Shown: one piece after another, positions 21,970 to 46,224 of the stretch | How positions within the stretch are numbered: the stretch's first letter is position 1 | Layout: the number at the start of each line of letters is the position of its first letter | Source of the DNA: Pontiella sp. | Lineage (GTDB): Bacteria; Verrucomicrobiota; Kiritimatiellia; Kiritimatiellales; Pontiellaceae | Reading direction: 5' to 3' | DNA: 64,000 nucleotides | Assembly: GCA_050290185.1 (NCBI GenBank) | Contig: JBNKHE010000008.1 | Coordinates: 32,001-96,000 of the forward strand | Notes under the pieces: generated by a model | Databases searched by the model: none | Seen by the model: only the letters and a program-made list of their open reading frames with translations | Told to the model about the DNA's origin: nothing | Translations under genes and position numbers: made by a program

Positions 21970-22920
21970 TTAGTCATCGCCATACATTTGATTGGCCTGC
22001 AGCAACTGCCCTTCGATTAGGGATTGTATGGCCAGTCCGCTTTCACGCCATGCCGCCAGCTGTTCCGGGGTCAGGATCGCCTGCATGCGTTGATCCATCA
22101 GTTCTCCGACCGCCTTCACATCGGCGATATGCTTGCGGATGTTTTCCTGCGAGTACCGCTCGGCGCTGAGATCCCTGTTTTCGTTATCGTTAAGGTCCGT
22201 GGACCAGTTGTATTTTTCCCGCTCTTCGTACATGATGTTGAGCACTTCACGATACGAGTCTTCCGGAAGGGCATTTTCGCCCAGCATCTGGTCCATCTGC
22301 GAAAGCATCATGCGTTCACCGATGGTGTCTTCATAATATTTGAATTCCTCGAAGTCCTTGGAATCATTCAGGAACTGTTCCATTTCAGCGCGCATGGCGT
22401 CGTTGACTTCATAAACATGTTCCTGAAGCGCCTGTTTTTCTTCTTCGGTGAGGGTGCCCGATGTCATTTTTATGTGCGCGTCCACATTCGCCATCTGGCG
22501 ATACATCAACAGGTCCATGAAATATTTAGTCTCATCGGCATTTAAACCCAGATACTCAATCATGTCGGCATACAGCGCTCCGATGGCTCCACGCTGACTG
22601 GCTTCGATCATCTTGTTGATGGTTGGGTTTTCCTCCATGGTCTTTGCCATATCGCGCATGATCCGGCTGGTTCCGTCCACGCTTCGATCCGGTTCCGGTT
22701 CAGGGGTTTCATCGATGGTTGCAGGTCCGTCCTCTCGGGCTGTCTGGTCCTGTCCAGCGGCCTGGTGGGCTTCGGTGGGCTGGTTCCCGGAATGCGATCC
22801 GGCTTCCATGTCCGCGATTTTCTTCGCCATTTGGGCTTTTTCCCGTTGCTGCAGCTGGAGAAAGACCGCGAGGGCCGCACAGACGATAACCAGAAGAATG
22901 ATGGGCATTTTCCGTTTCAT
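21970..22920 (-). CDS. Hypothetical membrane-anchored helical protein
   Basis: N-terminal hydrophobic anchor, long ORF, RBS GGAGGGA; no family recognised. Confidence 0.75.
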   Translation of the reverse strand: MKRKMPIILLVIVCAALAVFLQLQQREKAQMAKKIADMEAGSHSGNQPTEAHQAAGQDQTAREDGPATIDETPEPEPDRSVDGTSRIMRDMAKTMEENPTINKMIEASQRGAIGALYADMIEYLGLNADETKYFMDLLMYRQMANVDAHIKMTSGTLTEEEKQALQEHVYEVNDAMRAEMEQFLNDSKDFEEFKYYEDTIGERMMLSQMDQMLGENALPEDSYREVLNIMYEEREKYNWSTDLNDNENRDLSAERYSQENIRKHIADVKAVGELMDQRMQAILTPEQLAAWRESGLAIQSLIEGQLLQANQMYGDD

Positions 22921-23031
22921 GATTCCCTCCCTTGGTTCGGTTGTGTCACTTGTGTATCAACCCGTTGACAAAAAAGTAATTACAACATTTACTACCCGTT
23001 GTAAAGGTTGGTGGAAAAAAGAGCTATATTC

Positions 23032-24204
23032 ATGAAATGGGAGCGGACAGATCTGGGGCGGTTACCGGTAAAATCGTGGTGCGACCGGGTGGAACAAGGC
23101 GCATTGGATCAGGCGGCCAACCTAGCGAACCATCCTCGCGTGGTTGGTCACGTGGCGTTGATGCCGGACTGCCATGTGGGATACGGCATGCCGATCGGCG
23201 GGGTGGTTGCATGCGATAACGCCATTATTCCAAACGCGGTCGGTGTGGATATCGGTTGCGGCATGTGCGCGGTTCAGACCAGCGTCGAGGTTGACGCGAT
23301 TTCCCGCAGTCAGATTCGAAAATGCATGGATGCAGTCCAGGAACGCATTCCGCTGGGCGAGGGCCATTGCCATCGCAGACCGCAGCAATGGGATCGGTTT
23401 AACGAATTACCGTCGTGGCTGGATGAACATGCCCGCGAACTGGCGTTCAGGAATCTCGGATCGCTTGGCGGCGGAAACCATTTTGTTGAATTGCAGGCCG
23501 GCGATGATGGAATGGTTTGGTTGATGCTCCACTCCGGCTCGCGGAACCTCGGCTACCGGATTGCCGAGCGTCATCATGGTATTGCATTGAAGCGCCATTC
23601 CGAGCTGGGCGACCTCGCGTATCTCGAGGTGGGCAGTAGTGAAGGGCAGGCCTATCTCCATGACATGAATGTTGCCTTGGCCTACGCGCAGGAAAACCGT
23701 GCACGCATGATGCAAGTGTTCAGGGAAGCACTATTCGTCACGTTTGGCGATGTACGGTTCACTAAGGAGATCAATATCCACCACAACTATGCCGCCAAGG
23801 AAGCGCATTTCGGGAGAACCGTGTGGGTGCATCGCAAGGGGGCGACATCGGCCAAGGAGGGGGAAGAGGGGATTATTCCCGGCAGCATGGGAACGCATTC
23901 GTACATCGTGCGAGGTTGCGGGAATCCGGAATCGTTTCAGTCCTGCGCACATGGCGCCGGCAGGAAGTTGGGGCGCATGGCGGCTTCGCGCACGTTGTTG
24001 CGGGAGGATTGCGACAAGGCGATGACGGGCATCGTTTTTTCCGGCTGGCATGCGTTTCGGGGCGGTGGACGGAAGATGAAGGGATTGCTTGATCTCAGTG
24101 AAGCACCGCAGGCCTACAAGGATATTGATGAGGTTGTTGGGGCTTCTTCGGATCTGGCTGTGCCGCTGGTTCGATTGCGTCCTTTAGGTGTGGTGAAGGG
24201 GTAA
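23032..24204 (+). CDS. rtcB: RtcB family RNA ligase
   Basis: MPDCH.GYG.PIGG, GVDIGCG, GGGNHF.E, HSGSR, HNYA, HRKGAT, PGSMG, HGAGR, AYKDI. Confidence 0.95.
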   Translation: MKWERTDLGRLPVKSWCDRVEQGALDQAANLANHPRVVGHVALMPDCHVGYGMPIGGVVACDNAIIPNAVGVDIGCGMCAVQTSVEVDAISRSQIRKCMDAVQERIPLGEGHCHRRPQQWDRFNELPSWLDEHARELAFRNLGSLGGGNHFVELQAGDDGMVWLMLHSGSRNLGYRIAERHHGIALKRHSELGDLAYLEVGSSEGQAYLHDMNVALAYAQENRARMMQVFREALFVTFGDVRFTKEINIHHNYAAKEAHFGRTVWVHRKGATSAKEGEEGIIPGSMGTHSYIVRGCGNPESFQSCAHGAGRKLGRMAASRTLLREDCDKAMTGIVFSGWHAFRGGGRKMKGLLDLSEAPQAYKDIDEVVGASSDLAVPLVRLRPLGVVKG

Positions 24205-26434: not shown

Positions 26435-26941
26435 TGTTGGGATGGTTCTGTCGGCCTGTTTACCGGATGCCGGTACGACCATAACGTTGCATGGGGCATG
26501 GCGCATAACTGATTCGGATACGCTTCCGAGCAGGGCTTTATGAAGCATACCGTGTCCATGGGAGCCGAGGATTATGATATCGGCTTTCAGGTCGGTGGCC
26601 TTTTTGATAATAAGTTTGGCTGCATTTCCCTTTAGCAGGATGGCCCGCGCATCGATCCCTTCATTACGCAGGCCGGAAGAAATCGACAAGAGCTCGTCGT
26701 GTTCGCGTTTGAGCTCCTCTGCGCTAAGATCGCGGGCGACTTGAACATCTCCAGGTGTACTGATGAAGTCGGGCGAATAGTCTGCATATTGCGTAGTTTC
26801 GTAGATGACGGCATTAGTCTCGTCGGAGGCAATATGCACGATCCAAAGCTTCGCATTGAGAGTTTTTGCCAGCGAGGATGCCTGTTGCAATACGACGCCA
26901 GTGGTTTTGGAGAAGTCGATAGCGACTAAAAGCGTTTTCAT
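26420..26941 (-). CDS. Universal stress protein
   Basis: LVAIDFS, DIIILGSHG...LLGSVSESVMRHAPCNVMVVP. Confidence 0.92.
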   Translation of the reverse strand: MKTLLVAIDFSKTTGVVLQQASSLAKTLNAKLWIVHIASDETNAVIYETTQYADYSPDFISTPGDVQVARDLSAEELKREHDELLSISSGLRNEGIDARAILLKGNAAKLIIKKATDLKADIIILGSHGHGMLHKALLGSVSESVMRHAPCNVMVVPASGKQADRTIPTLAGQ

Positions 26942-27064
26942 TCTACCTCCTTTTCTCTTCCGGTATTCTAATACCTTATCCCTACATGGCAAGCTGGGCT
27001 TTTCCTGTTTCGGAAAGGATCGGAGGTTTAAAAATTGTTTTGAGAGAAGGGGATGCTATTTTTG

Positions 27065-29047
27065 CTAGGAATCAAGAGCGGGAAGCGTAATGAAGACCGT
27101 GGTGCCGCCTTCACTTGTTTCAATGTCCAGTTGGCCGTTATGGTCAATTACAGCCCGTTTGGCGATCGGCAGGCCGAGTCCAAGACCCCGGGCTTTGATG
27201 GTGCTGAACGGCGAGAAGACTTTGTCGCGCAACGAGGGGGAAACGCCGCTTCCGTTGTCGGTGATCATGATATATACGGCACTGCCATTTTGCGAGGAAC
27301 GCCCCTTGACGGTTACATTGATCCGTGAGCCGGGTTTGTTTGAAAGGTTCTCCGCTGCATTTCTCAAGAGATGATAAATGCATTCCTCCAGCGAAGCCGC
27401 GTCACCGTTGACCTGCCGTCCCGTATCATCTGATGAAAGGTGAATCTTGAGGTTTTCGTGATCAAACTCGGATTGAATGCGTGTGACGGCAAATTCGATG
27501 GGTTTATGGACATCCAACGGTTGGAAGATCGGTTTTGGTGGATTGGCAAATTCATTGATCTTTTCGATGATGTGATTAAGTTTATCCACTTCGGCTGTAA
27601 CCTGTTCGCTAAAGTCTGCCCGGAAATCAGGATCTTCATACCGGTCGGGCAGAAGTTGCGAAAAGGTCTTGATGGCAACCAGTGGATTGCGGATTTCGTG
27701 ACTCATGCTTGAGGCCAACTCGTTCCAGAATGCTGCTCGTTCAAGTTGCTCTGCTTTTTCCTGAAGGAGTTTGGCGCCGGTTACATCGTGAAGCATCATC
27801 ATGGCCCCGACGCAGGTGCCGTTATCCATCAACCTGCGGGTTTCCGCTGAAAGGGTCCGTTTCGTCCGCACATCGGTCCACTCGTTGGCGTCGCGAATTT
27901 CCCGGTCCTCGATTGTTCTGCGCAACATATCTGCTATGCGGCTTCCAACTTCTTCTGCCTTGCCGCCGATCACGTCCTCGGTTTCAGGGCTCAGGATGGT
28001 TCGTGCAGTGCTATTGAACCAGCGTATTATGGCATTTTCATCGCAGGCAATAATGCCAAAAGGAATGGAATGGAGAAGGGTTTCCGCCAGGGCTTTCTGC
28101 AGGGCGGTTTCTTCGTACTTGAGTGCTTTTTCGAGGGTGGTGGAGATATGGTCGGCCAGCGCCGTCATGTCTTCGAGATCGGCCACGTCGAAAGGGATTC
28201 CGGTAGAGCGCTGGCCAACAAAAATCCACCCCTTAATGGTGCCCGTTGCGTATAGGGGAATAATGATCTCGGCACCTAGCGAGTCGAGCATCCGTTTGAG
28301 CATGGAGCGCTCTTCGGGATCCAAAATGTTTTTCAGCGTGGATCGAGAAACTAGATGGGTATTCATCTCCATCCAGCGGATAAAGGGATCGTTTGAATGA
28401 ATCCGCAGTTTTTCCGTTGCAGCAAGGCAGCGGGTGCCTGCCTGGTATATGTAGCATTCATCGGCTTCCGTGCATATGAATATGCCGGCGCGGGAGACGC
28501 GTGCTGTGGCTACAAGTCCATCGACCACACTGTCAAACAGCATCTCCAGATTGTCGACGTTGCGCTGCGCCTTTAAGAAGTTTTGGAGGGGGGCCGCAAA
28601 CAGGGTGCGGGATTCCTGTTTGGGTTCAGAGAGTCGAGCGTTCAGCGTTGCCAGTTCTTGCGCCAGCACACTGTTTTTATTGCGTAGGGCAAGGCATTCG
28701 ACCGCTTGTTTTAGCACAACGCGAAACTCACGGCTTCCTGGCTCCAGTGAGAGTGTGCAGAATGGATCCATCATTTCAGCCGCAAGCATGGGATCCGACC
28801 GGTCGACGCCCATGGGTATAATGATGGTTAGCGGCCTTTCATGTTTAAGTCCTGATATGACATCAAGACAATGGGGCGCGCGTAGGTCTGCCAAAAGAAC
28901 CGTGTCGCCAAATTGCATGAACCGTTGCTCAAGTTCTTCTTGAGTGGATATGGGCTCTATGAAGGCTACATTTGATCCAAGACGGGGGAGCTTGTTTACA
29001 AGTTCGGTATCCCTGCTATATAGAATGCATGAAGGCAGTGAGGTCAT
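27065..29047 (-). CDS. Cytoplasmic histidine kinase (degenerate REC-GAF-PAS-HisKA-HATPase)
   Basis: SHEIRNPL H-box, NA.E N-box, DNGSG, GLGLGL; GAF (IIPLYATGTIKGWIFVG); N-terminal LLADLRAP receiver-like segment. Confidence 0.88.
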   Translation of the reverse strand: MTSLPSCILYSRDTELVNKLPRLGSNVAFIEPISTQEELEQRFMQFGDTVLLADLRAPHCLDVISGLKHERPLTIIIPMGVDRSDPMLAAEMMDPFCTLSLEPGSREFRVVLKQAVECLALRNKNSVLAQELATLNARLSEPKQESRTLFAAPLQNFLKAQRNVDNLEMLFDSVVDGLVATARVSRAGIFICTEADECYIYQAGTRCLAATEKLRIHSNDPFIRWMEMNTHLVSRSTLKNILDPEERSMLKRMLDSLGAEIIIPLYATGTIKGWIFVGQRSTGIPFDVADLEDMTALADHISTTLEKALKYEETALQKALAETLLHSIPFGIIACDENAIIRWFNSTARTILSPETEDVIGGKAEEVGSRIADMLRRTIEDREIRDANEWTDVRTKRTLSAETRRLMDNGTCVGAMMMLHDVTGAKLLQEKAEQLERAAFWNELASSMSHEIRNPLVAIKTFSQLLPDRYEDPDFRADFSEQVTAEVDKLNHIIEKINEFANPPKPIFQPLDVHKPIEFAVTRIQSEFDHENLKIHLSSDDTGRQVNGDAASLEECIYHLLRNAAENLSNKPGSRINVTVKGRSSQNGSAVYIMITDNGSGVSPSLRDKVFSPFSTIKARGLGLGLPIAKRAVIDHNGQLDIETSEGGTTVFITLPALDS

Positions 29048-31557
29048 GAGGCCTCCTGCTGGATAACCGGAAGGTATACATAGAAGGTAGAGCCGGCTCC
29101 CGTTTCACTCTCCACTTCGATAACGCCTCCATGATCCTGAATGATACCATGCGCGACCGATAGACCCATGCCGGTTCCTTCGCTCTTGCTGGTGAAGAAC
29201 GGATCAAAAATCTTTTGGAGGCTTTCTCGTGGGATTCCGTGTCCGGTATCGCTGATTTGGACACGAATGCACGCTAGATTGACCCCATGGTTTGGATGCT
29301 CTCCAGTGGCAAACTGATATTTACAGTTAGAGGATCCCACTGTAATCGTGCCATCATTGCCGATGGCTTCTATGGCGTTTAGCATGAGGTTGATCAGGGC
29401 CTGGGACAAAAGCTTCGCGTCGCCTTGGATTTCGTCTACATCCGCATGGCATCTGTTGTTCATGCCGATGTTCTTTTGAATCATTTGCTCATGGGTGAGT
29501 TTGAGAATCTGGTCAATCGTATCGTGGAGTTTCATCGGCACAAGATGAGGTTTTGTAGGTTTGGAGAAGCTGAGCAACTCATTAACGATCCCGTCAATCC
29601 GTGACACTTCGTGCGCCACCAACTCAGAAAACTCCAGCCTGAAGTCCTCATCCGAATATCGGCTCGGCAACAACTGTGTAAAGGTTTTAATGGTCACCAG
29701 TGGATTCTTGATTTCGTGGGCCATGCCGGCGGCAAGCGTACCTACGCTGGAAAGCTGATCCGTACGCCGAACCTGCTCCTCCAGGCTTTTAAGTTCAGTC
29801 AGGTCTGTAAACACCAAGAGAGCCCCCATAGGCTTCTGATCATGACTCAGAAGAAAGGTTGTGCCCATTCTAATGCTCAGGCTTTTTTTCGCTTCATCCA
29901 GTTCGAACAGTCTGGCATCGACATTTCGCTGACCTTTCTCGCGTTTGAGCGCGTCTTCCAGCGAACGGGCAATCGCTTTTGGCAGCACATCGATATCCAT
30001 ACCGATGGCATCCTTATCCTGAATGCCGGTAATACGTTGTGCTTCATGATTGAACAAAGTTATTTTCCGCTCTGTATTAGCTAGAATCACACCGCTTACT
30101 AGTTGATCGAGCATGATCTCATTGCGTATCTTGCTGTCTTGGACTTCGGTATAAAGCTGGGCGTTTTCCAGTGCCACGGAGAATTGATTGCACAATAGCT
30201 GGAGGGCATCTTGCTCGGCGCTGTCATAGATACGACCATCAGTCTTTGGGCCGAGAAGCACTACGCCCGTTAATCCTTCTTTTGCGAATATCCCCGTGGC
30301 AACCTGAACATCATATTTGGTTAATGTATCTATGGCTTCCTGTATCTTAGCTGTAGGGCGTGTTCTTAGGAGACTATCTTTTGATATTGGTTCTTTTGAC
30401 TTCTTAATCATTTCTATAACCGCATTACTGGGCTCGAATGTAATGGTATTTTCACATTGCTCGGTGCAGTAACGCAAAGAATACCCGAGGTCTGAATACG
30501 CAAGCATTCCTATGCGTTCCGTCCCGAGTGCTGTGACAAGCAGTCTTAGAAAATGATCCAGAATTGCATCAATGGTGGTGACAGATTGAAACATTTTGCT
30601 TGCCGCTCTCATGGTTGACGATACATCCATGGACTTTGAGGCAATCAGTTTTTCGGCTACTTTCTGCAGTCGCCCATGCGCGGGTGTCATTGAAAATGCA
30701 ACCACTAGCGTTGCAATGATTTGAGCTGGGAGGTGCGAGTAAATCATGAATTGGCTGAGCAATAAGGACCCTAGGCTCCATGTAATTAAATAAACAATCA
30801 CAAGGTATACAATAAGTAGTGCGTAGGCAATTGCCCTACGAATAATGGTTAGGATGCCCAGTATTTTATGGATGGCTATCCCATACCCGACGGTTGCGAC
30901 AAGCGCTACAATGCTTAGCGCATTGGTAAATGGAACGTACTGTGATGTTCCGGCAATTAGGGGGATGAAAAGTCCGAGGACTGATCCTATCAAGAGCGCT
31001 ATTGTTGCGCCCAATACTACAAATGAAAGCTCTGCTCGCTGGACCCCGTCCAAGGTCTTCATGTCGCGTTTGAAGGCGACAATGAGACTTATGCCGGACA
31101 GCAAAAAATAAAAGGCATATATGGAAAGTCCCGCTCCATATTTGGGCTCTGCTAATGCCATGTCGGATGAGACGTTATCAGGCATAACCGTTGTTTTTAA
31201 GAAAAACTCTGTAAAACACAATGCGGTTGTGAGTATGTTTATAATTAAATATCGGATTCCTATCCTGAGAATGGACGTAAAAGAGCACTGGGGACATTTA
31301 ATGGAAAGCCGCAGGAGGTGACAGGAGGTCGGTATAATTGCTGCGAAGACGGAAGCCCATCGTATTGCCAGTGTTGCGGCTTCGGCGGTAGCCGCCTGGA
31401 TTATGAACCATCCGGATAGTTGCCACAACGTCACGCATCCGGCAAAGACTAAGAAATACTGGTTGACTACTCGGCGCGTATTGGTGAAATAGACGACTAT
31501 GCCGAGTATACTGGCGAACAAAAGCGTTCCAAGTATGGCGATCTCAACAATCAACAT
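29044..31557 (-). CDS. Membrane sensor histidine kinase (7TM-type input, GAF, PAS, HisKA, HATPase)
   Basis: ~9 hydrophobic helices in the first ~290 aa; [40 protein letters not shown]. Confidence 0.9.
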
Positions 31558-32798
31558 GTGTAATCAACTTTACTTATGATGAGTGAGCTATTTATGGCTC
31601 CGCTTCCATGGGAGTTTATTAGAAGCTTGCCTATTTCCGTATGCCTCGGCTCCTGCGATACGAAATCCAGATTGCAATCTGGATCAAGATTAACGAGGTT
31701 TGCCGTTGGCGGTACTACTTGATTGGCAATCGCCAGAGAACTTGCGATTACTTGATGGGCGCCTGCCGCCCCCAAGGGATTTCCGGTTGCTCCTTTGATT
31801 GAGGTTACGGGAACTGAATAAGCATGTTTTCCCAAAAGCTGCTCAATCAGTTTCGATTCTGCGGCATCAAGTATTTGGTCGCTGGGCCCGTGGGCAAAAA
31901 CAACATCAATTTCACGAGGTAACAACCCGGAATTGGCTAGTGCCTTATTCATGCTCGAGAGTAAGCCATTGCCGGCGCCGTCATAGTTAAGATCTCGGGA
32001 TGTTCCATGTCCAAGAATTTCAGCATACAAAGGAGCATTTCTGCTTTGGGCATGTTGCATGGATTCGAGGATGACAATCCCGCTGCCCTCGGCAAGTACT
32101 CCTCCGTCTCTGTTAATGTCAAAAGGGCGGCTTGCATGCATAGGGTCGTCGTTGTTCACGCTGACCATTCCGGCCGCGCAAAAACCGGCCATGGCTGACG
32201 GGACAATGGGAGCCTCGGTACCTCCGCAGATGCAAATGTCGGCTTTGCCTTCTTTAATTAACTTAGCTCCTGCGGCGATCGCATCAAGTCCGCTGACACA
32301 GGTATTGGAAATCGTGCTGATTTCCGTTTCTACTTCAAGCATGGCGCCTAGTAAACTGGACGCGGCTAAGTGAATGCATCCTTCTACCGCATATGGGACA
32401 AGTTTATTGGGGCCCATTTTGGCTACCCGGAGAATTTGGTTCTCAATGTGGTCAAACCCACCTAGGCTAATGCCTAGGATGATTGGTATAGGGGCCGCGC
32501 TTAGAAGGTCGGTATGCGCAATTCCCGCATCTACATTCGCATCGGCGGCAGCCCTCAAGCCCAATTGCACATTTCGACTCAGGCGCCTAGATTTTATGCG
32601 CCCATCCATATAGTCCTCGGGCACAAATCCAGTAACTTCTCCTGCAATTTTTGATTTAAAATCTGTTGCATCAAAAAGGGTAATCGGCCCGATGCCAGAT
32701 TCTCCTGCAAGAAGGGAGTTCCAGAAGGCGTCTTTGCCGATGCCGTTGGCGGCTAGTACGCCGATGCCGGTAATCACAACCCTGTTTCTTCCGATCAC
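31551..32798 (-). CDS. Atypical FabF-fold beta-ketoacyl synthase (Cys-His-Asn)
   Basis: RVVITGIG, SGIGPITLFD, NTCVSG, SRPFD.NRDG..LAEG; variant motifs AHGPSD, SIKGATGNPLGAAG, NSHGSG; GTG start. Confidence 0.88.
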   Translation of the reverse strand: MIGRNRVVITGIGVLAANGIGKDAFWNSLLAGESGIGPITLFDATDFKSKIAGEVTGFVPEDYMDGRIKSRRLSRNVQLGLRAAADANVDAGIAHTDLLSAAPIPIILGISLGGFDHIENQILRVAKMGPNKLVPYAVEGCIHLAASSLLGAMLEVETEISTISNTCVSGLDAIAAGAKLIKEGKADICICGGTEAPIVPSAMAGFCAAGMVSVNNDDPMHASRPFDINRDGGVLAEGSGIVILESMQHAQSRNAPLYAEILGHGTSRDLNYDGAGNGLLSSMNKALANSGLLPREIDVVFAHGPSDQILDAAESKLIEQLLGKHAYSVPVTSIKGATGNPLGAAGAHQVIASSLAIANQVVPPTANLVNLDPDCNLDFVSQEPRHTEIGKLLINSHGSGAINSSLIISKVDYTC

Positions 32799-32894
32799 GC
32801 GCTTTGCCCCCTGTGCCCTTATTCGATGCTGACTCGATGGAAAATGATGCCGCATAAGCGCTTCCGTCCGAGAGTCCTGTGCTATTTTGTCTCA

Positions 32895-32923
32895 ATTAAA
32901 TATCAATATATTGTATAGATCAA
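32895..32923 (-). promoter_or_regulatory. Putative sigma-70 promoter for the KS-HK-HK operon
   Basis: Minus strand TTGATC-N17-TTTAAT. Confidence 0.45.
32901..32913 (+). promoter_or_regulatory. IHF-like binding site
   Basis: TATCAATATATTG matches WATCAANNNNTTR. Confidence 0.55.
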
Positions 32924-32963
32924 GAATTATCACACAACCTGTGGACAAAAACTGAGTGACAAA

Positions 32964-32979
32964 TGGCATAACTGTTGCT
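32964..32979 (+). promoter_or_regulatory. Sigma-54 promoter for fadL operon
   Basis: TGGCATAACTGTTGCT, near-consensus TGGCAC-N5-TTGCW, ~48 nt before the ATG. Confidence 0.7.
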
Positions 32980-33027: not shown

Positions 33028-34257
33028 ATGAATAAACAAAGTTTTTACATCGTTTCCAGATCGGCAATATTTGGTGCGGCAGCGGCAGCGGCAGCGGCAA
33101 TGGCAAGCACTGTAATGGCTGATGGCTACCGGAACCCGCCACCGACCGCTGAAGGCATAGGTAAATCCGGTGTGAATAGCGTATTTGTGGATGATGCGTC
33201 GGCGATTTCGTACAATCCCGCCAACCTCGCACTGCAAGGCAACAACTCATTGGTTGTTGCGGCAACCTGGGCCAAGACGGAGAATTCTTATTCCAATCCC
33301 TTGAATCCGGCGGGACGTGTGGATTCGAATGACGAATGGGTTTTATTGCCCAATCTCTATATTTCCATGCCTTCAAGTTTTGACGGTGTGGTTTTGGGGC
33401 TTGGCATAACAACGCCTTATGGTCAGGGAATCGATTGGACTCCCACGGATCAATACAATCCGTTCGCGCCTATATCGATCTACCAGGCTGAAATCAGTCT
33501 GATAAATATTAATCCAACGGTTGCGTTTAAGATGGGTGATAAAGTGTCTGTTGGGGTTGGCGCGGATATCTATTATTCCGAACTGGTGTTCAATGCTTTG
33601 ACTGGCCTCGGCATAGGCGCTCCTCCGAATGGGAAGGCGAATGCAGAAGGCGATGACTTTGGGTATGGGGGAAATCTTGGCGTTACGTGGCAAATCGATG
33701 AACACCATCGGGCTATATTCACATACCGTAGCGAAGTGAAACTGGACTATGAAGGCGATTTGACGGCAACACCGGGCTCTTCGCTGACCAGCAGTAGCTT
33801 TGGTCTGGGCGTTACTTATCCCAACACGTTGGCTGCAGGATATGGTATTGAGCTGACGGAAGACATCCGCATTGAAGCCAATATCGAATGGCTTGAATGG
33901 TCTTCGACCAAGGTGCAGGTTGCCGATCTCGGAGCAAACGGAGCCCTGCCGCTGCCGCAAAACTGGGACGACACCTTTACCTTTGGGATTGGTGGTGATT
34001 GGAAGCTCGATGAAAATTGGGTGATCCGAGCAGGCTATGCCTTTATTGAGTCACCGATTCCGGACTCTACTATTTCACCGTTGCTCCCTGATTCCGACCG
34101 TCATGCTTTGAGTTTGGGGGCGGGCTATACTTCGGGGGGCCATACCGTGGATGTCGCCTATACGTTCAGTATTTACGATGATCGGGGCATGACGGCTTCA
34201 GGCACATATGACATTGATTCCGACTTGGTGGGTGTGACATATTCCTACTCGTTTTAA
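33028..34257 (+). CDS. FadL/OmpP1/TodX family outer-membrane channel
   Basis: Signal peptide, DDASAISYNPA hatch motif, TPYG, ININP..AFK, W.D, R.GYAF..SPIP, PDSDR, C-terminal YSF. Confidence 0.9.
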   Translation: MNKQSFYIVSRSAIFGAAAAAAAAMASTVMADGYRNPPPTAEGIGKSGVNSVFVDDASAISYNPANLALQGNNSLVVAATWAKTENSYSNPLNPAGRVDSNDEWVLLPNLYISMPSSFDGVVLGLGITTPYGQGIDWTPTDQYNPFAPISIYQAEISLININPTVAFKMGDKVSVGVGADIYYSELVFNALTGLGIGAPPNGKANAEGDDFGYGGNLGVTWQIDEHHRAIFTYRSEVKLDYEGDLTATPGSSLTSSSFGLGVTYPNTLAAGYGIELTEDIRIEANIEWLEWSSTKVQVADLGANGALPLPQNWDDTFTFGIGGDWKLDENWVIRAGYAFIESPIPDSTISPLLPDSDRHALSLGAGYTSGGHTVDVAYTFSIYDDRGMTASGTYDIDSDLVGVTYSYSF

Positions 34258-34272
34258 CCGGAGGTAGGAACC

Positions 34273-35460
34273 GTGGAATCGAAACAGTTGCAAGGCACGA
34301 TTTTAGTAATCGATGACGAGCGGGGACCGCGTGAAAGCCTGCGCATGGTACTCAAGTACGATTATGAAATGTTCCTCGCCGACCGCGTTGATGGCGGAGT
34401 GGAGCTGTTGCGCGAGCATCAACCGGACCTTGTGATTATGGATATCCGCATGCCGGAGAAAAGCGGTATTGAGGGGTTGCAGGAGATCCGCGAGATCGAC
34501 CCGAACGTTTCCATTGTCATGCTTACCGGCTACGGGGATCTGGAAACCGCCCAGCAGGCCATCCGCTACGGGGCCAACGACTATCTCCAAAAACCTTTTG
34601 ATGCCAATGAGATTCAGGAAGTCGTAAAGAAGTATGTCGATCGGAGCAAGCTCTACTCGCGCAAACGGCAGGCACAGGAAGAGCTTCAGAAGATGACCCA
34701 GTCGTTGGGTCGGGAAGTCGGGAAAACCAATAAGCTAACATCGTTGGGCGCAGCCTCGTCCGAGTTGGTTCATGATCTGCGTAATCCGCTCACCATCATT
34801 CGCGGCTATCTTGATCTGCTCAACTACGAGCTGAAGGAAAAACAGGAATCAACATCCGATGAAATGAACGAATATCTGGATCAGATCGAACGCAACGTCG
34901 AACGTTGCGCTGAGCTGGTCGAGTCATGGCGTTCGCTGGGCCGGTTTGATTTTTCCCAGTTGCAACGGCTCAATCTTCCAAAGCTGCTGAACGACTGTTT
35001 CCGCGATGCTGCGGCGCATTCCGATATCTCCTTTTCGCTGCAGGTGGAAGGAGGGGAAGAGCAGTATGAGATGCTGGGAGAGCGGTTGCAGATGCAGCGG
35101 GCTTTCCAGAATCTGATCGACAATGCCGTTGAAGCGGTTGCCCAGGTCTCTTCTCCGGGAATCACGATCTTGTTCTCCATGAATCATGCGGATATAACGG
35201 TCAAGGTAAAGGACAACGGATGCGGCGTTGATGCAAAAAATCTGAGATGGATTTTTGAACCGTTCGATAATATGGCCACAATTGAAAAGGGCGCCGGCCT
35301 CGGATTATTTATCACCAAAAAGGTGCTCGAAGAGCATCGTGGCACCTTGCAGTTTGAAAGCAAGGTGGGGGAAGGTTCCGTCGTTACGGTTCACGTTCCG
35401 CAGGCCCACACGGCCCTTGGATATTTTTCCAGTCCCGAATCTATGATCCAAGCCCGATGA
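34273..35460 (+). CDS. Receiver-histidine kinase hybrid (REC-HisKA-HATPase)
   Basis: VIDDE, MDIRMP, TGYG, KPFD; VHDLRNPL; NAVEA, DNGCG, GAGLGL. Confidence 0.9.
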   Translation: MESKQLQGTILVIDDERGPRESLRMVLKYDYEMFLADRVDGGVELLREHQPDLVIMDIRMPEKSGIEGLQEIREIDPNVSIVMLTGYGDLETAQQAIRYGANDYLQKPFDANEIQEVVKKYVDRSKLYSRKRQAQEELQKMTQSLGREVGKTNKLTSLGAASSELVHDLRNPLTIIRGYLDLLNYELKEKQESTSDEMNEYLDQIERNVERCAELVESWRSLGRFDFSQLQRLNLPKLLNDCFRDAAAHSDISFSLQVEGGEEQYEMLGERLQMQRAFQNLIDNAVEAVAQVSSPGITILFSMNHADITVKVKDNGCGVDAKNLRWIFEPFDNMATIEKGAGLGLFITKKVLEEHRGTLQFESKVGEGSVVTVHVPQAHTALGYFSSPESMIQAR

Positions 35461-35467
35461 ACTCCCG

Positions 35468-37084
35468 ATGAGTATTTCCGATTCTGTCTCTGCCGCAATC
35501 GCATCCTGGAAACAGGATCTTGGCGAGTCGGCCGTGATGACTGAATCCGGTCCGCTGGATGACTATACAAGCAGTGTTTGCGCATCATCACGTGAAGTCG
35601 TCGCTGTTCTTAAGCCCACTTCAATGGAGCAGGTTCAATGCATCGTTGCAAAGGCCAATGAACACAAGGTTCCGCTCTACCCCATCAGCTGCGGCAAGCA
35701 GTGGGGAATGGGGTCAAAATTGCCCGTGGAAGATGGCGCCGCCATTGTCGACCTTTCGGGAATGAACCGGATCATCGAAGTCAATCCCCGGTTCCATTAC
35801 GCAGTCGTCGAACCGGGTGTGACGCAACGGCAACTGCTCGACTATATCAAAGAGCACCATTTTCCGCTTATGCTCAATGTAACGGGCTCCACATCCGATA
35901 CCAGCCTGATCGGGAATGCGATGGATCGTGGTGTGGGCTACTTTGATTCCCGGGCACACGGAATTTCCGATATGCAGGTTGTTTTGGGAAATGGGAAAAC
36001 CATCCAAACCGGATTCAGCCACTACGGGAATGCCAAAACAAAAAACCTGTACGCTCACGGTGTGGGACCTTCGCTTGATGGACTGTTTCCTCAGGGAAAC
36101 TTTGGCATTGTAACCTCCGCGTGTATCGACCTTATGCCCAAACCCGATGAGCATATGTCGGTTATTTTAAAGATCGATGCAGAGGAGAAGCTTCCGGCGC
36201 TCATCAATACGCTGGTGTCGTTGCGATCGAGAGGTGTATTCGCAACGATAGCGCACATGGGAAATCGTGAGCGCTCGTACATCACATTGGCGCCGTTGCT
36301 TTATGAGCAACTGGTAAAATCCGGCGAACCAGAAGGAGAAGCCACTCGAACTAAGGCCGTGACCATGCTGGAAGACGGCGGCTTCGGACCATGGAGTGCG
36401 GCCATCGGCATCCTCGGAACCAAGGACCAGCTCAAGCTGGCAAAAAAAGAAATTCGCAAGGCGGTCAAAGGCTTTGCCTCGACGATGTTCCTGAATGACA
36501 ATCTGATTGCCTGGGCAAAGGCCTTTGCCCAAAAGCTGACCTTCATTCCGGCGGTCAAGAACCAGCTCATGATGCTCAAGGCCATAGAACCCGTCTATGG
36601 ATTTACGGCGGGCGAAGCCACCAATCAATCGCTAAAGGCTGTGTATTGGTCAGCCGGCGACTATGAACACCTAGACGCTTCCGATCCCGACCAGTCTGAT
36701 AGCGGCCTGTTATTCTGCCTACCCATCATTCCTGCCGACGGTCAAGCTGTGAACGAAGTCGTCCGCGATACCCGCGATACTTTTTCCCGCCACGGTTTCG
36801 AGGCCGCGATTACTGTAAATCTAATGAGTACCAAGGCGATGGAAGGCGTTGTCAGTCTGGCATTCGATCGCCGCGATCCGGAGCAAACCCAACGGGCGCA
36901 TACCTGCATTCAGGAGATGGAAGCGCGCTACATGACGCAGGGTTATCCTCCATACCGGGTTGGAATCAATTCCATGCACCATGTGGTTCGGGAAGACGAT
37001 TCGTTCTGGCAAACCATCCGGGAACTCAAGACCGTGCTCGATCCGAATAATATCATTGCGCCCGGCCGTTACAACTTGGTGTAG
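35468..37084 (+). CDS. FAD-linked oxidase, vanillyl-alcohol oxidase/p-cresol methylhydroxylase family
   Basis: YPIS.G..WG.GS, DLS.MNRI, VEPGVT, GPSLDGLF.QGNFGIVT, GYPPYR, LDPNNIIAPGRY. Confidence 0.9.
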   Translation: MSISDSVSAAIASWKQDLGESAVMTESGPLDDYTSSVCASSREVVAVLKPTSMEQVQCIVAKANEHKVPLYPISCGKQWGMGSKLPVEDGAAIVDLSGMNRIIEVNPRFHYAVVEPGVTQRQLLDYIKEHHFPLMLNVTGSTSDTSLIGNAMDRGVGYFDSRAHGISDMQVVLGNGKTIQTGFSHYGNAKTKNLYAHGVGPSLDGLFPQGNFGIVTSACIDLMPKPDEHMSVILKIDAEEKLPALINTLVSLRSRGVFATIAHMGNRERSYITLAPLLYEQLVKSGEPEGEATRTKAVTMLEDGGFGPWSAAIGILGTKDQLKLAKKEIRKAVKGFASTMFLNDNLIAWAKAFAQKLTFIPAVKNQLMMLKAIEPVYGFTAGEATNQSLKAVYWSAGDYEHLDASDPDQSDSGLLFCLPIIPADGQAVNEVVRDTRDTFSRHGFEAAITVNLMSTKAMEGVVSLAFDRRDPEQTQRAHTCIQEMEARYMTQGYPPYRVGINSMHHVVREDDSFWQTIRELKTVLDPNNIIAPGRYNLV

Positions 37085-37256: not shown

Positions 37257-37754
37257 CTATGAGTAAGTGAATTCCTTTATCACATGCCGGTTAACCCTGT
37301 TGGTCGCGTGCTGCACCTCAAGGATTTTAGCATCGATCGCTACCAGTTTACTTTCGGATAGTTGTGTGGTTTCTGTGGTGTCGAGTATGTGTCGGTCGAT
37401 TTTTTCTATCATGTCGATACAAGCGCATAGCGCTTGTTTGAAGTTTGACCCCAGTGATAGGTCTTCGTGAGGTACATGCAGTTCGGCGGCAACTATGCAT
37501 AGGGTGCGAAAGGCGCTTAGCATCAATTCCTTCGAACTCTCCCAGGCTTCTTCAGTATCAATCATCTTCCAATAGATATGTGTTGGCGTGGGTGCCATCC
37601 GTTTCTTTTTGTAGTGCAGAACCTCCATCAAGCACACCCTGATGGCGCATAAATGGGCATCCAGCAGATCCCCGTCAATACCCGGTTCCATAGGCGATTC
37701 GCTTGCGGCGTGGTCAGCTTGATCAACCTTGTTTCTCTTGAAAAATGTGAACAT
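37257..37754 (-). CDS. Hypothetical helical protein
   Basis: 165-aa ORF with RBS GGGAGA and AT-rich upstream region; no family recognised. Confidence 0.55.
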   Translation of the reverse strand: MFTFFKRNKVDQADHAASESPMEPGIDGDLLDAHLCAIRVCLMEVLHYKKKRMAPTPTHIYWKMIDTEEAWESSKELMLSAFRTLCIVAAELHVPHEDLSLGSNFKQALCACIDMIEKIDRHILDTTETTQLSESKLVAIDAKILEVQHATNRVNRHVIKEFTYS

Positions 37755-38378: not shown

Positions 38379-39479
38379 TTACGCAGAAACCGGTCGTTCG
38401 GCCACCCACTGGCGCATGGCATCCTTGGTTTTCTTCCAAGCCGCCGAATCATTGCGCTCTTTCACGAATTCGCGGAAGAGGTGGAAAAACATCTGTCGGA
38501 AGGTCTCGAGCAGGACCATGCGTTCCTGGAACTTGCCAACGCGGTCGAAGGTTTCGGTTTGCGGGAGCTTCAGGCTGCGGAAGACAAATTCGTCGGCGTC
38601 GAACGTAAAGGCCCAGGCCTCCTCGCCGCGCACGAACTGGAGTTTGGCCTTCTTGAGTTTCTTGCCGCTGAGCAGGGCGGTGCGGGCTTCGGCGCTGAGC
38701 ATCGGCTCGCCCTTGCGCAGGGTGATTTCATGCGCTCCCTTTCCTTCCATCACGAATGTCAGTGGGCCCTCTACCATGAAGGCGATTTCCCCGACATCGG
38801 GAATTTGGGACAGTCCGCCGCGTTTTTCGGAACAGTACCACAGCCACATCAGAAATTCGCGCCCGGCGGTGCCGTCGACCATGCCGTCTTCGAGTTCGCC
38901 GGAAAAGCTGGCCGGGCCCCAGTTTTGCACATCGATACTTTCTGTTTTTGCGGCCATCGTTTCCGGATCGGCCACTTGTGCGGAACAGCCGGTTGTTTGC
39001 ATTAGGGTAAGCGCGAAAGCATCGAGTTGCTTTTCGGACGTGGCCGAGGCGTAAATCATATGCGAGCGTTCATCGAACACAAAATCGATGCCCTTGAGCT
39101 GCGGCGGCATATCGGGTAGCAGGCGTTCCTTGACCTGTTTCTTGATTTCGGAGCGCGCCTGCTGGTTGAGGTATTGCTTGTCGTCCGCTTCCATGACCGC
39201 CATTTCTTCGACCGCGCATTCGGCAGCCAGCAGGGAGGACGGCACTGTTTTTTTTGCTTGTGTCAGGGTCAGACGGAGGTAGCCGCCCAGAAAGGCGCTT
39301 TCCTCGGTAATGTTGCGGTCGAGCAGGTGGCGTCCGGCCACCCAGCCGTGGACTTCCTCTTCAACCAGAGTGTTCAATGGCGGCAGCGCCGCGGCGGAAA
39401 ACTTTTCGACATCTTCCGCTCCCAAATCCCGCGATGCGAAAAACATACGGAAGCTCAACGATCCCTTTTCAAATCCCAT
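38379..39479 (-). CDS. rdgC: RdgC-like recombination-associated protein
   Basis: MGFEKGSLSFRMF, GW...L, K.VPSSLL, EIKKQVKERLL, GREFL.WLW, EARTAL..GKK, F.F.SLKLP. Confidence 0.7.
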   Translation of the reverse strand: MGFEKGSLSFRMFFASRDLGAEDVEKFSAAALPPLNTLVEEEVHGWVAGRHLLDRNITEESAFLGGYLRLTLTQAKKTVPSSLLAAECAVEEMAVMEADDKQYLNQQARSEIKKQVKERLLPDMPPQLKGIDFVFDERSHMIYASATSEKQLDAFALTLMQTTGCSAQVADPETMAAKTESIDVQNWGPASFSGELEDGMVDGTAGREFLMWLWYCSEKRGGLSQIPDVGEIAFMVEGPLTFVMEGKGAHEITLRKGEPMLSAEARTALLSGKKLKKAKLQFVRGEEAWAFTFDADEFVFRSLKLPQTETFDRVGKFQERMVLLETFRQMFFHLFREFVKERNDSAAWKKTKDAMRQWVAERPVSA

Positions 39480-39515
39480 CTCAAAACCTCTTCTATCAAA
39501 TTTATTTGGCCCTGG

Positions 39516-39580
39516 CAGCGACGCTGAGGGCGCAGAGTTTATAACGTGCACTTCTCCGCGATCTCTGCATCTCTGCGAGG
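39516..39580. repeat. Intergenic CGCAGAG/CTCTGCG palindromic repeat
   Basis: GCAGCGACGCTGAGGGCGCAGAG...CTCCGCGATCTCTGCATCTCTGCG. Confidence 0.5.
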
Positions 39581-39588
39581 AATGTCTT

Positions 39589-41229
39589 TTACCAAGTCAT
39601 GGTAATTCCGGTGGAGACGGAGGTGGGGCGCGGCTTCAGGCCGGGTATGGCTTGGAAGTCGGATCCCCACAGGTTTTCCACCAGGAACGAAAGGCGCACA
39701 TTCTTGGCGAAGCGGGGGTCGTAATGCAAGCCCAGGGATGCCTCGGCACCGAAGTCGTTGCTGGTACGCACCTTGTTTCCTGTCTGGTAGCGCAGGTTCT
39801 GGGAGCCGATCAGCTGAAGCTCCGGCGTAATCTGCCAGAAGCCGGCCAACGCCAGCAGATGTTCCGGATAATCGAGTTCATACAGTCCCGCATAGACGTC
39901 GTATTCATCCTTTGTGATCCACTGGTAGTACAGCTCGATCTTCAATTCATCCGAGGTCCGATAGTTCACTTTGGCGTTGATTCCCGAAACGTTCAGATGG
40001 CCGAGGTCAGTTGCCCTCCATGCCGTGTCGGCGACGGTTGTCTTCGTCCAGGCCGAAGCGTTTTCCAATCGGCGGTGGAAAGCCGCGGCTTTCCAGTCGA
40101 GCCGCGCCGAAAGAAACTGGTGAAGTCCCAGTTCGGTGTTTTTCGATCGTTGCAGGTTCAGTGCATTGTTGCCCGTGTGGTAGGGATCCGAGTAGTAGAG
40201 CGTTTGATAGTCCGGTTGCTGCACGGTTTCCGAATAGGAGGCGTAGAGCTTGATGTTGTCGGTGGCGAAGTAGTCGATGCCCGTTTGCGGGAGCCATTCG
40301 GTGGATTCGTCGGTTTGGAAGACGCTGTTCAGGCCGGCCTTGAAGGTAAAGCGCTCAAAGCGCGCCTCCGGCAGGATTAGGACCGAAGCGCGTGTACGGT
40401 CATGGTTGCCGATGTCGCCGTCTACCCGCTCGTGCTCAATATCGCTCCGCAGGTTCAATGCAATGTTTTGGATTTCCAGCGTACGGCCTTCGACGAAGGC
40501 CGTACCCAGATACGAATGGATACCGTTGTCAAAGGTTGCACTGGGAATGCGGTACTCATCGTCGAACGCCCGGAACGCAGTGCCGGCACGGAGATAGGAT
40601 CCATCCAGTTCGCCGTATGTCGCGCCAAGGAACAGCAGCGTATCCTTTGTTTGCTCATCGGCATATACATTGGTGGGAATGCCGTAATAACCCTGAGCGC
40701 CGAAGTTCTTCTGCTGGTATCCCGCCAGCAGATCCAGCTGCCAGTCGTTGACGGACTGCTTGACATAGGCGCCGCCCGAATAGCGGTTGAGGCCGTTGGC
40801 GTCGTGGTCGATTTGCAACGCCTTTTCACCTTCAATGAAACCGCCGATACCGGAGTCGAATACCGACATGTCTGCCGAATAATGCTCCCGCGTGCCGATG
40901 CCTAGCGTGGTCTGCAGACGAGCCGCTTGCGGTATGGTGCGGTAGGCGGAGGTTCCGACAAGATAGCCTGATGCATTGTCTAGCCCATAGTGTGCGGCAG
41001 GATCGGAGAGCAAATAGGCGGGAATGGGAGCTTCGTTGTTGAAATGGGCGGAATAGGGAACCTTCAGGTTCAGGCCGTTCAGCGAGATTCCCGTGCCTGC
41101 ATAGCTACTCCCCCGGATCGAAAGATCCTGCTGGGCCAATCCCTGCGAATTGACCAGAATCTCCGGCGATCCCGCGAATGCGAGTGCCGGGGCAATCAGT
41201 CCGATCAGCCCGATCCGTCTGATGTTCAT
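39589..41229 (-). CDS. TonB-dependent receptor-like protein with shortened plug
   Basis: Signal peptide, DLSIRGS...LNG plug motif, amphipathic beta-strands, P..YQTLY, VENL, C-terminal W. Confidence 0.8.
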   Translation of the reverse strand: MNIRRIGLIGLIAPALAFAGSPEILVNSQGLAQQDLSIRGSSYAGTGISLNGLNLKVPYSAHFNNEAPIPAYLLSDPAAHYGLDNASGYLVGTSAYRTIPQAARLQTTLGIGTREHYSADMSVFDSGIGGFIEGEKALQIDHDANGLNRYSGGAYVKQSVNDWQLDLLAGYQQKNFGAQGYYGIPTNVYADEQTKDTLLFLGATYGELDGSYLRAGTAFRAFDDEYRIPSATFDNGIHSYLGTAFVEGRTLEIQNIALNLRSDIEHERVDGDIGNHDRTRASVLILPEARFERFTFKAGLNSVFQTDESTEWLPQTGIDYFATDNIKLYASYSETVQQPDYQTLYYSDPYHTGNNALNLQRSKNTELGLHQFLSARLDWKAAAFHRRLENASAWTKTTVADTAWRATDLGHLNVSGINAKVNYRTSDELKIELYYQWITKDEYDVYAGLYELDYPEHLLALAGFWQITPELQLIGSQNLRYQTGNKVRTSNDFGAEASLGLHYDPRFAKNVRLSFLVENLWGSDFQAIPGLKPRPTSVSTGITMTW

Positions 41230-43971: not shown

Positions 43972-44376
43972 CTAAGCCTCGATGGGGTCCGCTTCGAGGT
44001 TATACGACCCGTCCGGATTGTGGACTTCCTTGCCATGCAGCGGCGGGTTGAATACGCAGGCCATCTTCATCTCCTCAAAGGCGCGGAGTATATGCTTGTC
44101 GTTTTCGTTGAGGATATAGACGGTTCCGGGCTCGATCGGGTGCTTTTTCCCGTCGCTGAGCGTTTCCACCTCGCCGCGTCCCGACATGCAGTAGACGGTT
44201 TCAAGGTGCCGCTTATAATGCAGCATGAAGTCCGCGCCCTTGTAGATGGTTGTGATGTGGAACGAGTAGCCCATGCCATCCTCTTTCAGCAACAGGCGGG
44301 TGCTTTCCCAGTTGCCGTCCGGGGAGACGATTCGCCGGTTGCTCTTTTCGGCGTTCTTCAACTGTCTAACGATCAT
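43972..44376 (-). CDS. ectC: L-ectoine synthase
   Basis: [39 protein letters not shown]. Confidence 0.97.
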
Positions 44377-44378
44377 GA

Positions 44379-45710: not shown

Positions 45711-45714
45711 GTGA

Positions 45715-46224
45715 TCAACCTCTTTCGTTATGTGCAATGGGGCCGATGTGCCAGAGTTCTTCCGACTCATGCTGGCCGTTGAAGTGTTCGGACTTGTCAA
45801 AGCCTTGCAGGATTCGTGCTTCGGTCGACAACGTGTCGGCCAGCCGTTTGAATAGGGCCTGCGAGGCCGCATTGTCCGGAGTGATGGTGGTTTCTATAAA
45901 GTCGACGTTCTGGCAGGCCGGTTGTTTCAGCAAGGCCTGCAGCATTCGGATCGCCAATCCCTGCCCCCGCGCTTCCTCGGCCACGACGACCTGCCAGACG
46001 AACAAGGTGTCCGGCTTCGCCGGAAGCAGGTAGCCGGAAACAAAGCCGACCAGCTTGCCATCGGATTTGGCGCAGATGCAGGTATCCTGGAAGTGGGTGC
46101 ATTGCAGTAGATTGCAGTACACGGAGTTGGGGTCCAATGGCGGACTTTTTTCTATAAGACGGTTCAATTCATAACCGTCACTCGACTTGGGTGATTCTAT
46201 GGTAACTTCAGTTGTATGTCGCAA
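45715..46224 (-). CDS. ectA: Diaminobutyrate acetyltransferase
   Basis: PPLD.NS.YCNLLQC.HF, LFVWQV, ETTIT.DN.AS, H..E.L..IGP. Confidence 0.95.

Follow-up and report, generated by a model that had tools for sequence, protein, structure and literature searches.

A remodelled FabF-fold enzyme and its type-matched membrane sensor kinase in Pontiella: a candidate signal synthase and receptor

The locus described here raises the question of what a ketosynthase-type gene does in an operon of sensor kinases. It lies in a 64,000-nucleotide (nt) stretch of DNA from Pontiella sp. (assembly GCA_050290185.1, contig JBNKHE010000008.1, positions 32,001 to 96,000), which we call the window and to which all coordinates refer. 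The enzyme that it encodes, here given the working name KS*, has the FabF fold and an acceptor pocket that is rebuilt. An earlier note on this DNA had read it as a ketosynthase with a rewired active site; absent from that note was the point that KS* is constantly paired, type by type, with a membrane sensor kinase, HK1. We propose, with the reservations given below, that KS* may make the signal that HK1 senses.

The enzyme and its family

The gene and the residues that matter for the argument are as follows, with residues assigned by alignment with E. coli FabF.

31551-32798, minus strand: KS*, FabF-fold enzyme with rebuilt acceptor pocket; intact open reading frame (ORF) of 415 amino acids (aa) with a GTG start
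32583-32594, minus strand: basic patch K69/R71/R72, aligned to E. coli K65/R68/K69 (docking region 1 for acyl carrier protein, ACP)
32298-32300, minus strand: Cys167 (E. coli C163), the nucleophile, in NTCVSG
32100-32102, minus strand: Gly233 (E. coli F229)
31878-31892, minus strand: HGPSD, with His303 (codon 31890-31892), and Pro305 and Asp307 in place of the pantetheine-anchoring Thr305/Thr307
31779-31781, minus strand: Asn340 (E. coli H340), in GNPLGAAG; aligns with the thiolase GHP His
31602-31610, minus strand: His397-Gly-Ser399 (E. coli F398/F400), in NSHGSGA; His397 (codon 31608-31610) aligns with the thiolase CxG Cys, and Ser399 is codon 31602-31604

Relatives of KS* likewise begin V/M-IG[RK]NRVV, which supports the GTG start region. 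Both the codon positions and the alignment bear out the residues that the earlier note had picked out (Cys167, His303, Asn340, HGPSD and NSHGSGA): relative to E. coli FabF, C163, H303 and K335 are kept, and the changes are T305P, T307D, H340N, F398H, F400S and G402A. The fold that it named also holds, since an AlphaFold model of KS* (predicted local distance difference test, pLDDT, 92.9) matches FabF in Foldseek with a template modelling (TM) score of 0.94-0.95, placing it in the elongating-ketosynthase fold, and in VIA-align with Z 61.8 and a root-mean-square deviation (rmsd) of 1.5 over 404 residues, against Z 28.2 for PhlC. Identity to FabF structures is 35-39%, Pfam reports the ketoacyl-synt N and C domains with a short Thiolase_N match, an Atlas search returned ketosynthase clusters only, and public annotation of the family is KAS II. 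The score against TIGR03150 (fabF) is 372.8 bits, short of the cut-off of 493.75. Exactly two FabF-type ketosynthase genes were found in the genome, KS* and, on another contig, a canonical Cys-His-His FabF that is 35% identical to it.

The substitutions mark a family and are not a product of chance, a strain quirk or decay. Decay is refuted because conservation is family-wide (Cys167, Lys335 and Asn340 are present in 120/120 homologues listed, and Phe at 398 in none), because dN/dS of KS* is about 0.04-0.12 (8 of 13 pairs with unsaturated dS), and because 39 of the 401 genomes of a phylum sample carry KS* (at least 485 bits, next score 450), all 39 with a second FabF-level match. The listed homologues, in whose number the window's own entry P0002 is counted, are, that entry apart, 45-74% identical to KS*, with His (69) or Tyr (51) at position 303 and His (60), Arg (58) or Cys (2) at position 398 in E. 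coli numbering. Eighty loci from a genome collection divide into 65 of the KS* family, titled Chthoniobacterales, Kiritimatiellia, Lentisphaeria or other Verrucomicrobiota with one titled Nitrospirales, and 15 canonical FabF loci, which served as controls. A kinase-based search recovered additional, more divergent members, and named KS* proteins are present in three described Pontiella species (P0007, 72%; P0018, 53%; P0028, 53%). Substitutions unique to this strain, which the earlier note had named as an outcome that would count against its reading, are thus refuted, and a clade of enzymes with GNP, HGPS and NSHG, which it had proposed to look for, is supported by the 120 homologues, the 65 loci and a quick tree of 70 rows, in which the canonical set, a small one of 16 rows of which 11 are cyanobacterial, is one side of a 100% branch.

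To describe the active site across the family, 118 family loci and the window (n=119) were aligned with the 15 canonical controls and E. coli FabF; six duplicate loci, short-hit loci and seven rows with a hit span across a stop codon were omitted. The equivalent of C163 is kept in 119/119 and is the only invariant residue of the catalytic triad. Outside the triad, D311 and E314 are kept in 119/119, K335 in 117 and D265 in 111, and the positions of K69, R71 and R72 hold K or R in 101, 106 and 113 members, respectively; in FabF, the K65/R68/K69 patch docks ACP (PMC7138838). Position 303 is H in 73, Y in 36, W in 6 and N in 4, so that Tyr, Trp or Asn stands there in 46/119. Position 340 is N in 103, S in 5, C in 5, H in 2, I in 2 and T in 2, and Ser replaces Asn340 in 5 of 26 same-genus members. 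T305 is kept in 4 members (P in 98) and T307 in none (D in 60, H in 55). The F229 equivalent is Gly in 117/119 family members against Phe in 15/15 canonical controls, a change (Gly233 in KS*) that would open the acceptor pocket. Loop 2 is three residues shorter in 117/119, G310 has become L, I or M in 110 and E349 has become Q in 111; F398 is replaced by H in 75 and R in 43, and the gate Phe400 is kept in 20. ACP region 2 is poorly kept, its R206 being Gly in 82/119.

Condensation by E. coli FabF requires His340; Thr305 and Thr307 of that enzyme anchor pantetheine, and G310M or G310F lowers condensation about 50-fold (bioRxiv 10.1101/2021.02.13.431092). Judged from the alignment, the malonyl-handling and pantetheine subsite of KS* is rebuilt family-wide, and the altered acceptor pocket that the earlier note had deduced from one protein is found throughout the 119 members. 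Its further idea, that a switch to a Cys-His-Asn triad like that of FabH or chalcone synthase was the defining event, is not supported by the comparison: this combination occurs in just 62/119 members, the window protein included, and Cys-His-His in 0/119, and we therefore read the family signature as the Cys plus a rebuilt acceptor pocket, not as Cys-His-Asn.

A profile alignment to three thiolases sets His303, Asn340 and His397 at the NEAF Asn, the GHP His and the CxG Cys, the last match coming from the global profile alignment only, with low column confidence there. The general base of thiolase is this CxG Cys, Cys378 (PMC3406046). The thiolase order Asn303/His340 is seen in L088 and L092 (also in L063, L089 and L093), counted as two members within the 119-member set.

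Membership of the known families was considered and rejected in turn. FabF/KAS II is set aside on C167-H303-N340, HGPSD and GSGA in place of the Cys-His-His triad, Thr305/Thr307 and the Phe400 GFGG gate, and KAS III (FabH, type III PKS or PpyS-type) on best NCBIfam hits to FabF and FabB, with no FabH model at E<=1e-8. Thiolase I/II fails in that His303, Asn340 and His397 replace the NEAF Asn, GHP His and CxG Cys and TIGR01930 scores 36.3 against 240.55 bits, although KS* may still work in a thiolase-like way. Chain-length factors (KS-beta) have the catalytic Cys replaced and a partner KS-alpha adjacent; here the Cys is kept in 119/119, and the genome's two ketosynthase-type genes are on different contigs. 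A His base at the CxG position of PhlC was considered and dropped as wrong or unsupported: no H385 appears in the excerpts of PMC6392133, PMC12960953 and PMC12955522, the last of which has Gly384/Gly385 there.

Matched types of enzyme and sensor

29044-31557, minus strand: HK1 sensor kinase, 837 aa, with a seven-transmembrane (7TM) bundle (residues 1-230), GAF, PAS, HisKA and HATPase
30237-32678, no strand: approximate swappable block, the HK1 membrane sensor and most of KS*; no blastn alignment to the different-type locus L172

HK1 is found in all 39 KS*-bearing genomes of the phylum sample and stands immediately downstream of KS* in 62 of the 65 family loci, the remaining three loci ending within 712 nt; in the window its start codon overlaps the KS* stop by 7 nt. 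KS* is present at E<=1e-85 in 28 of the 54 genomes of the window's family. The KS* proteins of these 28 genomes are 43-73% identical to the window copy, and the canonical FabF is 78-89% identical to that of the window's genome in 24 of the other 27; also recorded are a partial match of 82% in one more genome, a partial match of 69% in the single genome of another genus, and two cases without a match (some of these assemblies are incomplete). Clustering of KS* at 60% and of the sensor (residues 1-300) at 46%, thresholds set after inspection of the data, yields nine groups of each, and the grouping is identical in 26 of the 28 genomes. The Mantel correlation of KS* with the sensor is 0.50 (rho; p 0.0005), against 0.04 with the kinase core, -0.06 with the REC-kinase and 0.01 with FadL (both introduced below). 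Across the 65 loci, partial correlation with KS* runs from 0.55 for the 7TM bundle through 0.41 for GAF-PAS to 0.19 for the kinase core, and the membrane bundle is the most variable part of HK1 (28-48% within the genus). Hypervariability of KS* is not universal, because in Chthoniobacterales the enzyme varies far less, its identity often being 70-80% against 75-85% for the backbone.

The edges of the variable part can be seen in pairwise comparisons. Between L082 and L186, DNA that is 81-85% identical flanks on both sides a non-aligning 2.4-kb stretch holding the sensor and KS*, and the window aligns to its same-type relative L167 across 30503-32963 with no gap. GC content is 0.46 over the sensor half of HK1 (29790-31557) against 0.54 genome-wide. 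By the type matching and the pairwise alignments, KS* and the HK1 membrane sensor are exchanged between related bacteria as one block, independently of the rest of the locus. Two genomes, L087 and L185, run counter to this, as they pair one KS* type with another sensor type; in addition, adjacency alone can yield co-exchange by linkage, and direct protein contact would do so too. Against pure linkage, FadL on the other side does not co-vary, and the block edges lie within both genes.

The model of the sensor (pLDDT 85.7) has a 7TM bundle that aligns best to the membrane domains of class C G-protein-coupled receptors (GPCRs; Z 17.7, rmsd 3.5, 223 residues, 8% identity), a shared helical fold that shows no function. 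Foldseek with HK1 chiefly matched the GAF domain; the sensor part reached no curated cut-off, and a weak match to LuxN (E 1.6e-4) came from a single member out of 22.

Neighbouring genes, proposed function and its rivals

27065-29047, minus strand: HK2, soluble kinase, 660 aa, with a degenerate receiver-like N-terminus, GAF, PAS, HisKA and HATPase; 4-nt overlap with HK1
32964-32978, plus strand: sigma54-type -24/-12 site oriented to fadL, the sole exact match in the window
33028-34257, plus strand: FadL/OmpP1-family outer-membrane channel
34273-35460, plus strand: REC-HisKA-HATPase hybrid kinase (REC-kinase)
35468-37084, plus strand: flavin oxidase of the VAO/PCMH family, occupying the variable slot for tailoring enzymes; p-cresol methylhydroxylase is its best solved relative (E 2.5e-62)

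None of HK1, HK2, the REC-kinase, FadL and the oxidase was found in the 15 canonical FabF control loci, and the REC-kinase is divergent from KS* in 54 of the 65 family loci. A sigma54 site in the same orientation within 450 nt is present in 20/116 family loci against 1.25 expected, and the operon of fadL, REC-kinase and tailoring enzyme is likely to be sigma54-driven. A full sigma54 activator is encoded in 26/118 family loci; elsewhere in the window's genome there is one 43% identical to the cassette type (G000:C8:187475-188836). Among the 118 loci, many of which are short, accessory genes comprise FadL (63), oxidase (34), LanB-N-like protein (34), three kinds of radical SAM enzyme (2, 4 and 7), O-methyltransferase (5), PaaK-like enzyme (3), adenylyltransferase-like protein (4), and PlsY and a FeeM-domain gene (12 each).

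We think it somewhat probable that KS* is a signal synthase of some chemistry. The more specific reading, which we put forward tentatively as one that may well prove wrong, is that KS* transfers acyl chains without decarboxylation and so makes a lipid signal, specific to its type, for the HK1 sensor. Of the two activities that the earlier note had offered, acyl transfer to a non-malonyl acceptor is in this way retained as the best reading, and a one-off condensation becomes a rival. The demonstrated part of this work is anatomy, conservation and co-exchange, on which the proposal for product, activity and acylation is built. Its observed premise is that the family retains Cys167 and the basic patch for ACP docking and has other residues throughout at the malonyl-handling positions. 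Host acyl-ACP would acylate Cys167, and the enlarged pocket would hold a small acceptor to which the acyl chain passes without loss of CO2, His397 possibly serving as a thiolase-like base in the window's type; a precedent in the thiolase fold is PhlC/MucB, a small-molecule acylase after losing the HDxF His with the Cys kept (PMC12960953). Our first guess at the product would be an amide with an aromatic amino acid or amine, because a phenol-oxidase-family gene adjoins and FeeG/CndG-type flavin oxidases act on N-acyl tyrosine (PMC11959600). The variable neighbour would tailor the product, here a flavin oxidase and elsewhere an O-methyltransferase, a B12 radical SAM, a PaaK-like or a LanB-like enzyme. 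FadL would then admit it across the outer membrane, the 7TM bundle would bind it, and HK1, HK2 and the REC-kinase would relay to a sigma54 activator raising the fadL operon.

Several observations weigh against this proposal. Even acylation of Cys167 by acyl-ACP is uncertain, given the loss of the pantetheine anchors and the poor conservation of ACP region 2. In E. coli FabF, transacylation also falls, to 4.5% in F400A, to 0.3-0.4% in loop chimeras, and in G310M (bioRxiv 10.1101/2021.02.13.431092). Position 398 is Arg, a poor base, in 43/119 members, and the 62/119 that keep His303, Asn340 and Lys335, KS* among them, could still support decarboxylation. No sigma54 activator is present in the window's locus, where a gap of just 126 nt (26939-27064), too short to hold one, separates HK2 from usp. 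Where it is present, a pair of PlsY and a FeeM-domain/aminotransferase protein could form the amide instead. As for the acceptor, the window oxidase keeps the C-terminal YR motif and has Met/Leu where p-cresol methylhydroxylase has the Tyr of GYG, both of which we take to be phenolate-binding in that enzyme, and a tyrosine-type substrate is a guess only.

The start/stop overlap of KS* with HK1, and its place in the kinase operon and not in the sigma54 operon, would also suit a cytoplasmic co-receptor that makes no diffusible product: carrying acyl-ACP or an acyl ligand, either bound or covalently attached, it would switch the kinase through direct contact. The Cys alone being invariant within the triad fits such a role, loss of the gate and the pantetheine anchors would favour slow turnover, and the co-variation gradient from 7TM through GAF-PAS to core could arise from contact co-evolution as well. 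We nevertheless hold this to be unlikely: biosynthetic tailoring genes vary beside KS*, the most variable part of HK1 is the membrane bundle, FadL implies a ligand from outside, and three loci retain kinase genes without KS*. One of these, L153, has lost FadL, still carries the two kinases together with the activator, the REC-kinase and the oxidase, and is a candidate receptor-only state; a 91-aa, internally deleted KS* relic abutting its intact HK1 (L153:9084-9359, minus strand) was recognised by eye, with a tblastn E of only 3.4. Of the other two, L154 has just HK1, and the kinase pair of L163 is a more distant one. Such persistence is as expected if KS* makes the signal and does not read it, and it mildly favours a signal maker over an obligatory co-receptor.

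A signal synthase could also work by a single C-C condensation, malonyl-dependent like FabH or chalcone synthase or head-to-head like PpyS and DarB, giving a pyrone, resorcinol or ketone. Cys-His-Asn with Lys335 in KS* and 62/119 members, hydrogen-bond donors as all residues at 303 and most at 340, the known ketosynthase-made signals of PpyS and DarB, and nearby O-methyltransferases and phenol-oxidase-family genes that suit a phenolic product are all consistent with it. It is made rather unlikely by the loss of His303 to Tyr, Trp or Asn in 46/119 and of Asn340 to Ser in 5/26 same-genus members, by the subsite for malonyl and pantetheine, which is rebuilt throughout the family, and by the window's locus, in which neither an ACP nor a partner synthase gene was seen. 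That KS* processes or destroys an incoming signal by thiolysis, hydrolysis or re-acylation appears improbable to us: the ACP-docking patch is kept, the gene is in the kinase operon and not in the sigma54 operon, and the window's locus showed no further hypervariable gene as a synthase candidate; yet the thiolase-like arrangement, in which a base occupies the CxG position (N303/H340 in two members), would suit it, uptake and breakdown could also account for import by FadL and for an oxidase behind a likely sigma54 promoter, and type matching with the sensor would likewise be expected. As to an ordinary elongating FabF, a drug-resistant spare or a decaying paralogue, the fold, the 35-39% identity and the public annotation speak for it, and the missed TIGR03150 cut-off, the canonical FabF elsewhere in the genome, the family-wide substitutions under purifying selection and the fixed kinase context make it very hard to credit; no pointers to antibiotic resistance emerged in this analysis.

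Known systems and further observations

With FabF/KAS II of E. coli, B. subtilis and P. aeruginosa, KS* has in common the fold, Cys163, Lys335, Asp265, Asp311, Glu314 and the ACP region-1 patch; it differs in that His340, Thr305, Thr307, Phe229, Phe398, Glu349, Gly310 and loop 2 are replaced, and in its kinase operon. FeeM, unlike KS*, is a GNAT-type enzyme, and FeeG is placed in the VAO/PCMH family; the window oxidase is likened to FeeG by this family placement only. The N-acyl tyrosine-enamide pathway of FeeM/FeeG runs from acyl transfer to a flavin oxidase, as proposed here (PMC11959600). In Photorhabdus, PpyS/PluR and DarB/PauR resemble our proposal in having a stand-alone ketosynthase as signal synthase on host acyl precursors; PpyS is FabH-like and the PpyS and DarB signals are read by LuxR-type receptors, whereas KS* pairs a FabF fold with a 7TM histidine kinase in matched types (PMC7154725). 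PhlC/MucB is like KS* in a kept Cys, a lost catalytic His motif and a pocket remodelled for a small-molecule acceptor, and unlike it in archaeal-type thiolase origin, acetyl donor and three-subunit complex, KS* being FabF-derived and encoded by a single gene (PMC12960953).

In the KS* locus the hypervariable block spans the synthase candidate and the receptor N-terminus between conserved flanks. The specificity groups of agr and comQXPA are organised in the same way, their hypervariable block taking in the gene that makes the signal and the sensor at the N-terminus of the kinase. Those systems use ribosomal peptides in Gram-positive bacteria, and we claim no homology to them. A signal synthase also adjoins a membrane histidine kinase in Vibrio CqsA/CqsS; CqsA has the chemistry of a pyridoxal-phosphate enzyme, PhcB of Ralstonia is a methyltransferase, and PhcR is a REC-plus-kinase relay protein like the REC-kinase here. 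The KS* locus departs from PhcBSR and CqsA/S in its pair of GAF-PAS kinases, in having FadL and a sigma54-type promoter, and in occurring as at least nine types within a single genus. In PhcB/PhcS/PhcR a fatty-acyl signal synthase likewise stands beside a membrane histidine kinase (PMC7154725).

No description of a KS*/7TM-kinase system was found in the literature searched, from which subscription journals are largely absent. This suggests that, ketosynthase-made signals and kinase-read fatty signals being already known, the type-matched pairing of KS* with a 7TM kinase is new as far as found. At its fullest, and more tentatively than the acyltransferase reading itself, the proposal is a new class of bacterial cell-to-cell signal in Verrucomicrobiota: an acyltransferase derived from FabF, working without decarboxylation and with a thiolase-like base, would be exchanged as one block with a 7TM histidine kinase of GPCR fold, giving at least nine mutually specific lipid "dialects" in one genus, varied further by plug-in tailoring enzymes. 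If true, this would mean new chemistry for the FabF fold and a new pairing of signal and receptor in Verrucomicrobiota, a phylum that is abundant in soils (Chthoniobacterales) and sediments (Kiritimatiellia) and for which the literature searched yielded no such system. It would also point to a candidate source of ligands for the orphan 7TM histidine kinases, which are very numerous (33,608 representatives at E<=0.001, found partly through the GAF domain). Matched and mismatched enzyme/sensor pairs, together with the described Pontiella species, make the proposal directly testable.

Other types of the locus carry other neighbours. A stand-alone LanB N-terminal-domain protein (about 690-840 aa) stands behind the REC-kinase in 34 of 36 Tyr303/Arg397 loci, e.g. 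L001:4106-6568 (minus strand); all 34 LanB-N-like loci have Tyr303/Arg397 and form one lineage, and FadL was not found at them. The protein of L044 matches Pfam Lant_dehydr_N (E 3.7e-15), with no solved relative and no NCBIfam match for this neighbour, which could be an aminoacyl-tRNA-dependent ligase. In many same-genus loci, PlsY and a fusion of a FeeM domain with an aminotransferase class V follow the oxidase (L170:186-2399 and L084:1-1585, both minus strand); the fusion was not found in the window's genome, and searches for a FeeM-type synthase in place of KS* beside similar kinases elsewhere gave nothing usable. The divergent Trp303 members L161, L162, L164 and L165 have a same-strand REC-kinase or oxidase, shorter kinases and an adenylyltransferase-like gene.

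Beyond the family, the plasmid matches shown for the oxidase are only 26-29% identical, and a metagenome scan gave six relatives, close ones only. In another phylum, weak partial matches were seen in 45/251 genomes, a tally that counts G472; of 20 loci looked at, the G472 locus not among them, 19 have no ketosynthase within 1.5 kb. Elsewhere in the window are ORFs without a Pfam match at 21970-22920 (minus strand, 316 aa) and 37257-37754 (minus strand, 165 aa), and ORFs for RtcB (23008-24204, plus strand), an RdgC-like protein (38379-39551, minus strand) and a TonB-dependent receptor (39589-41229, minus strand), as well as a possible ectABC trio at 43972-46224 (minus strand), recognised by eye.

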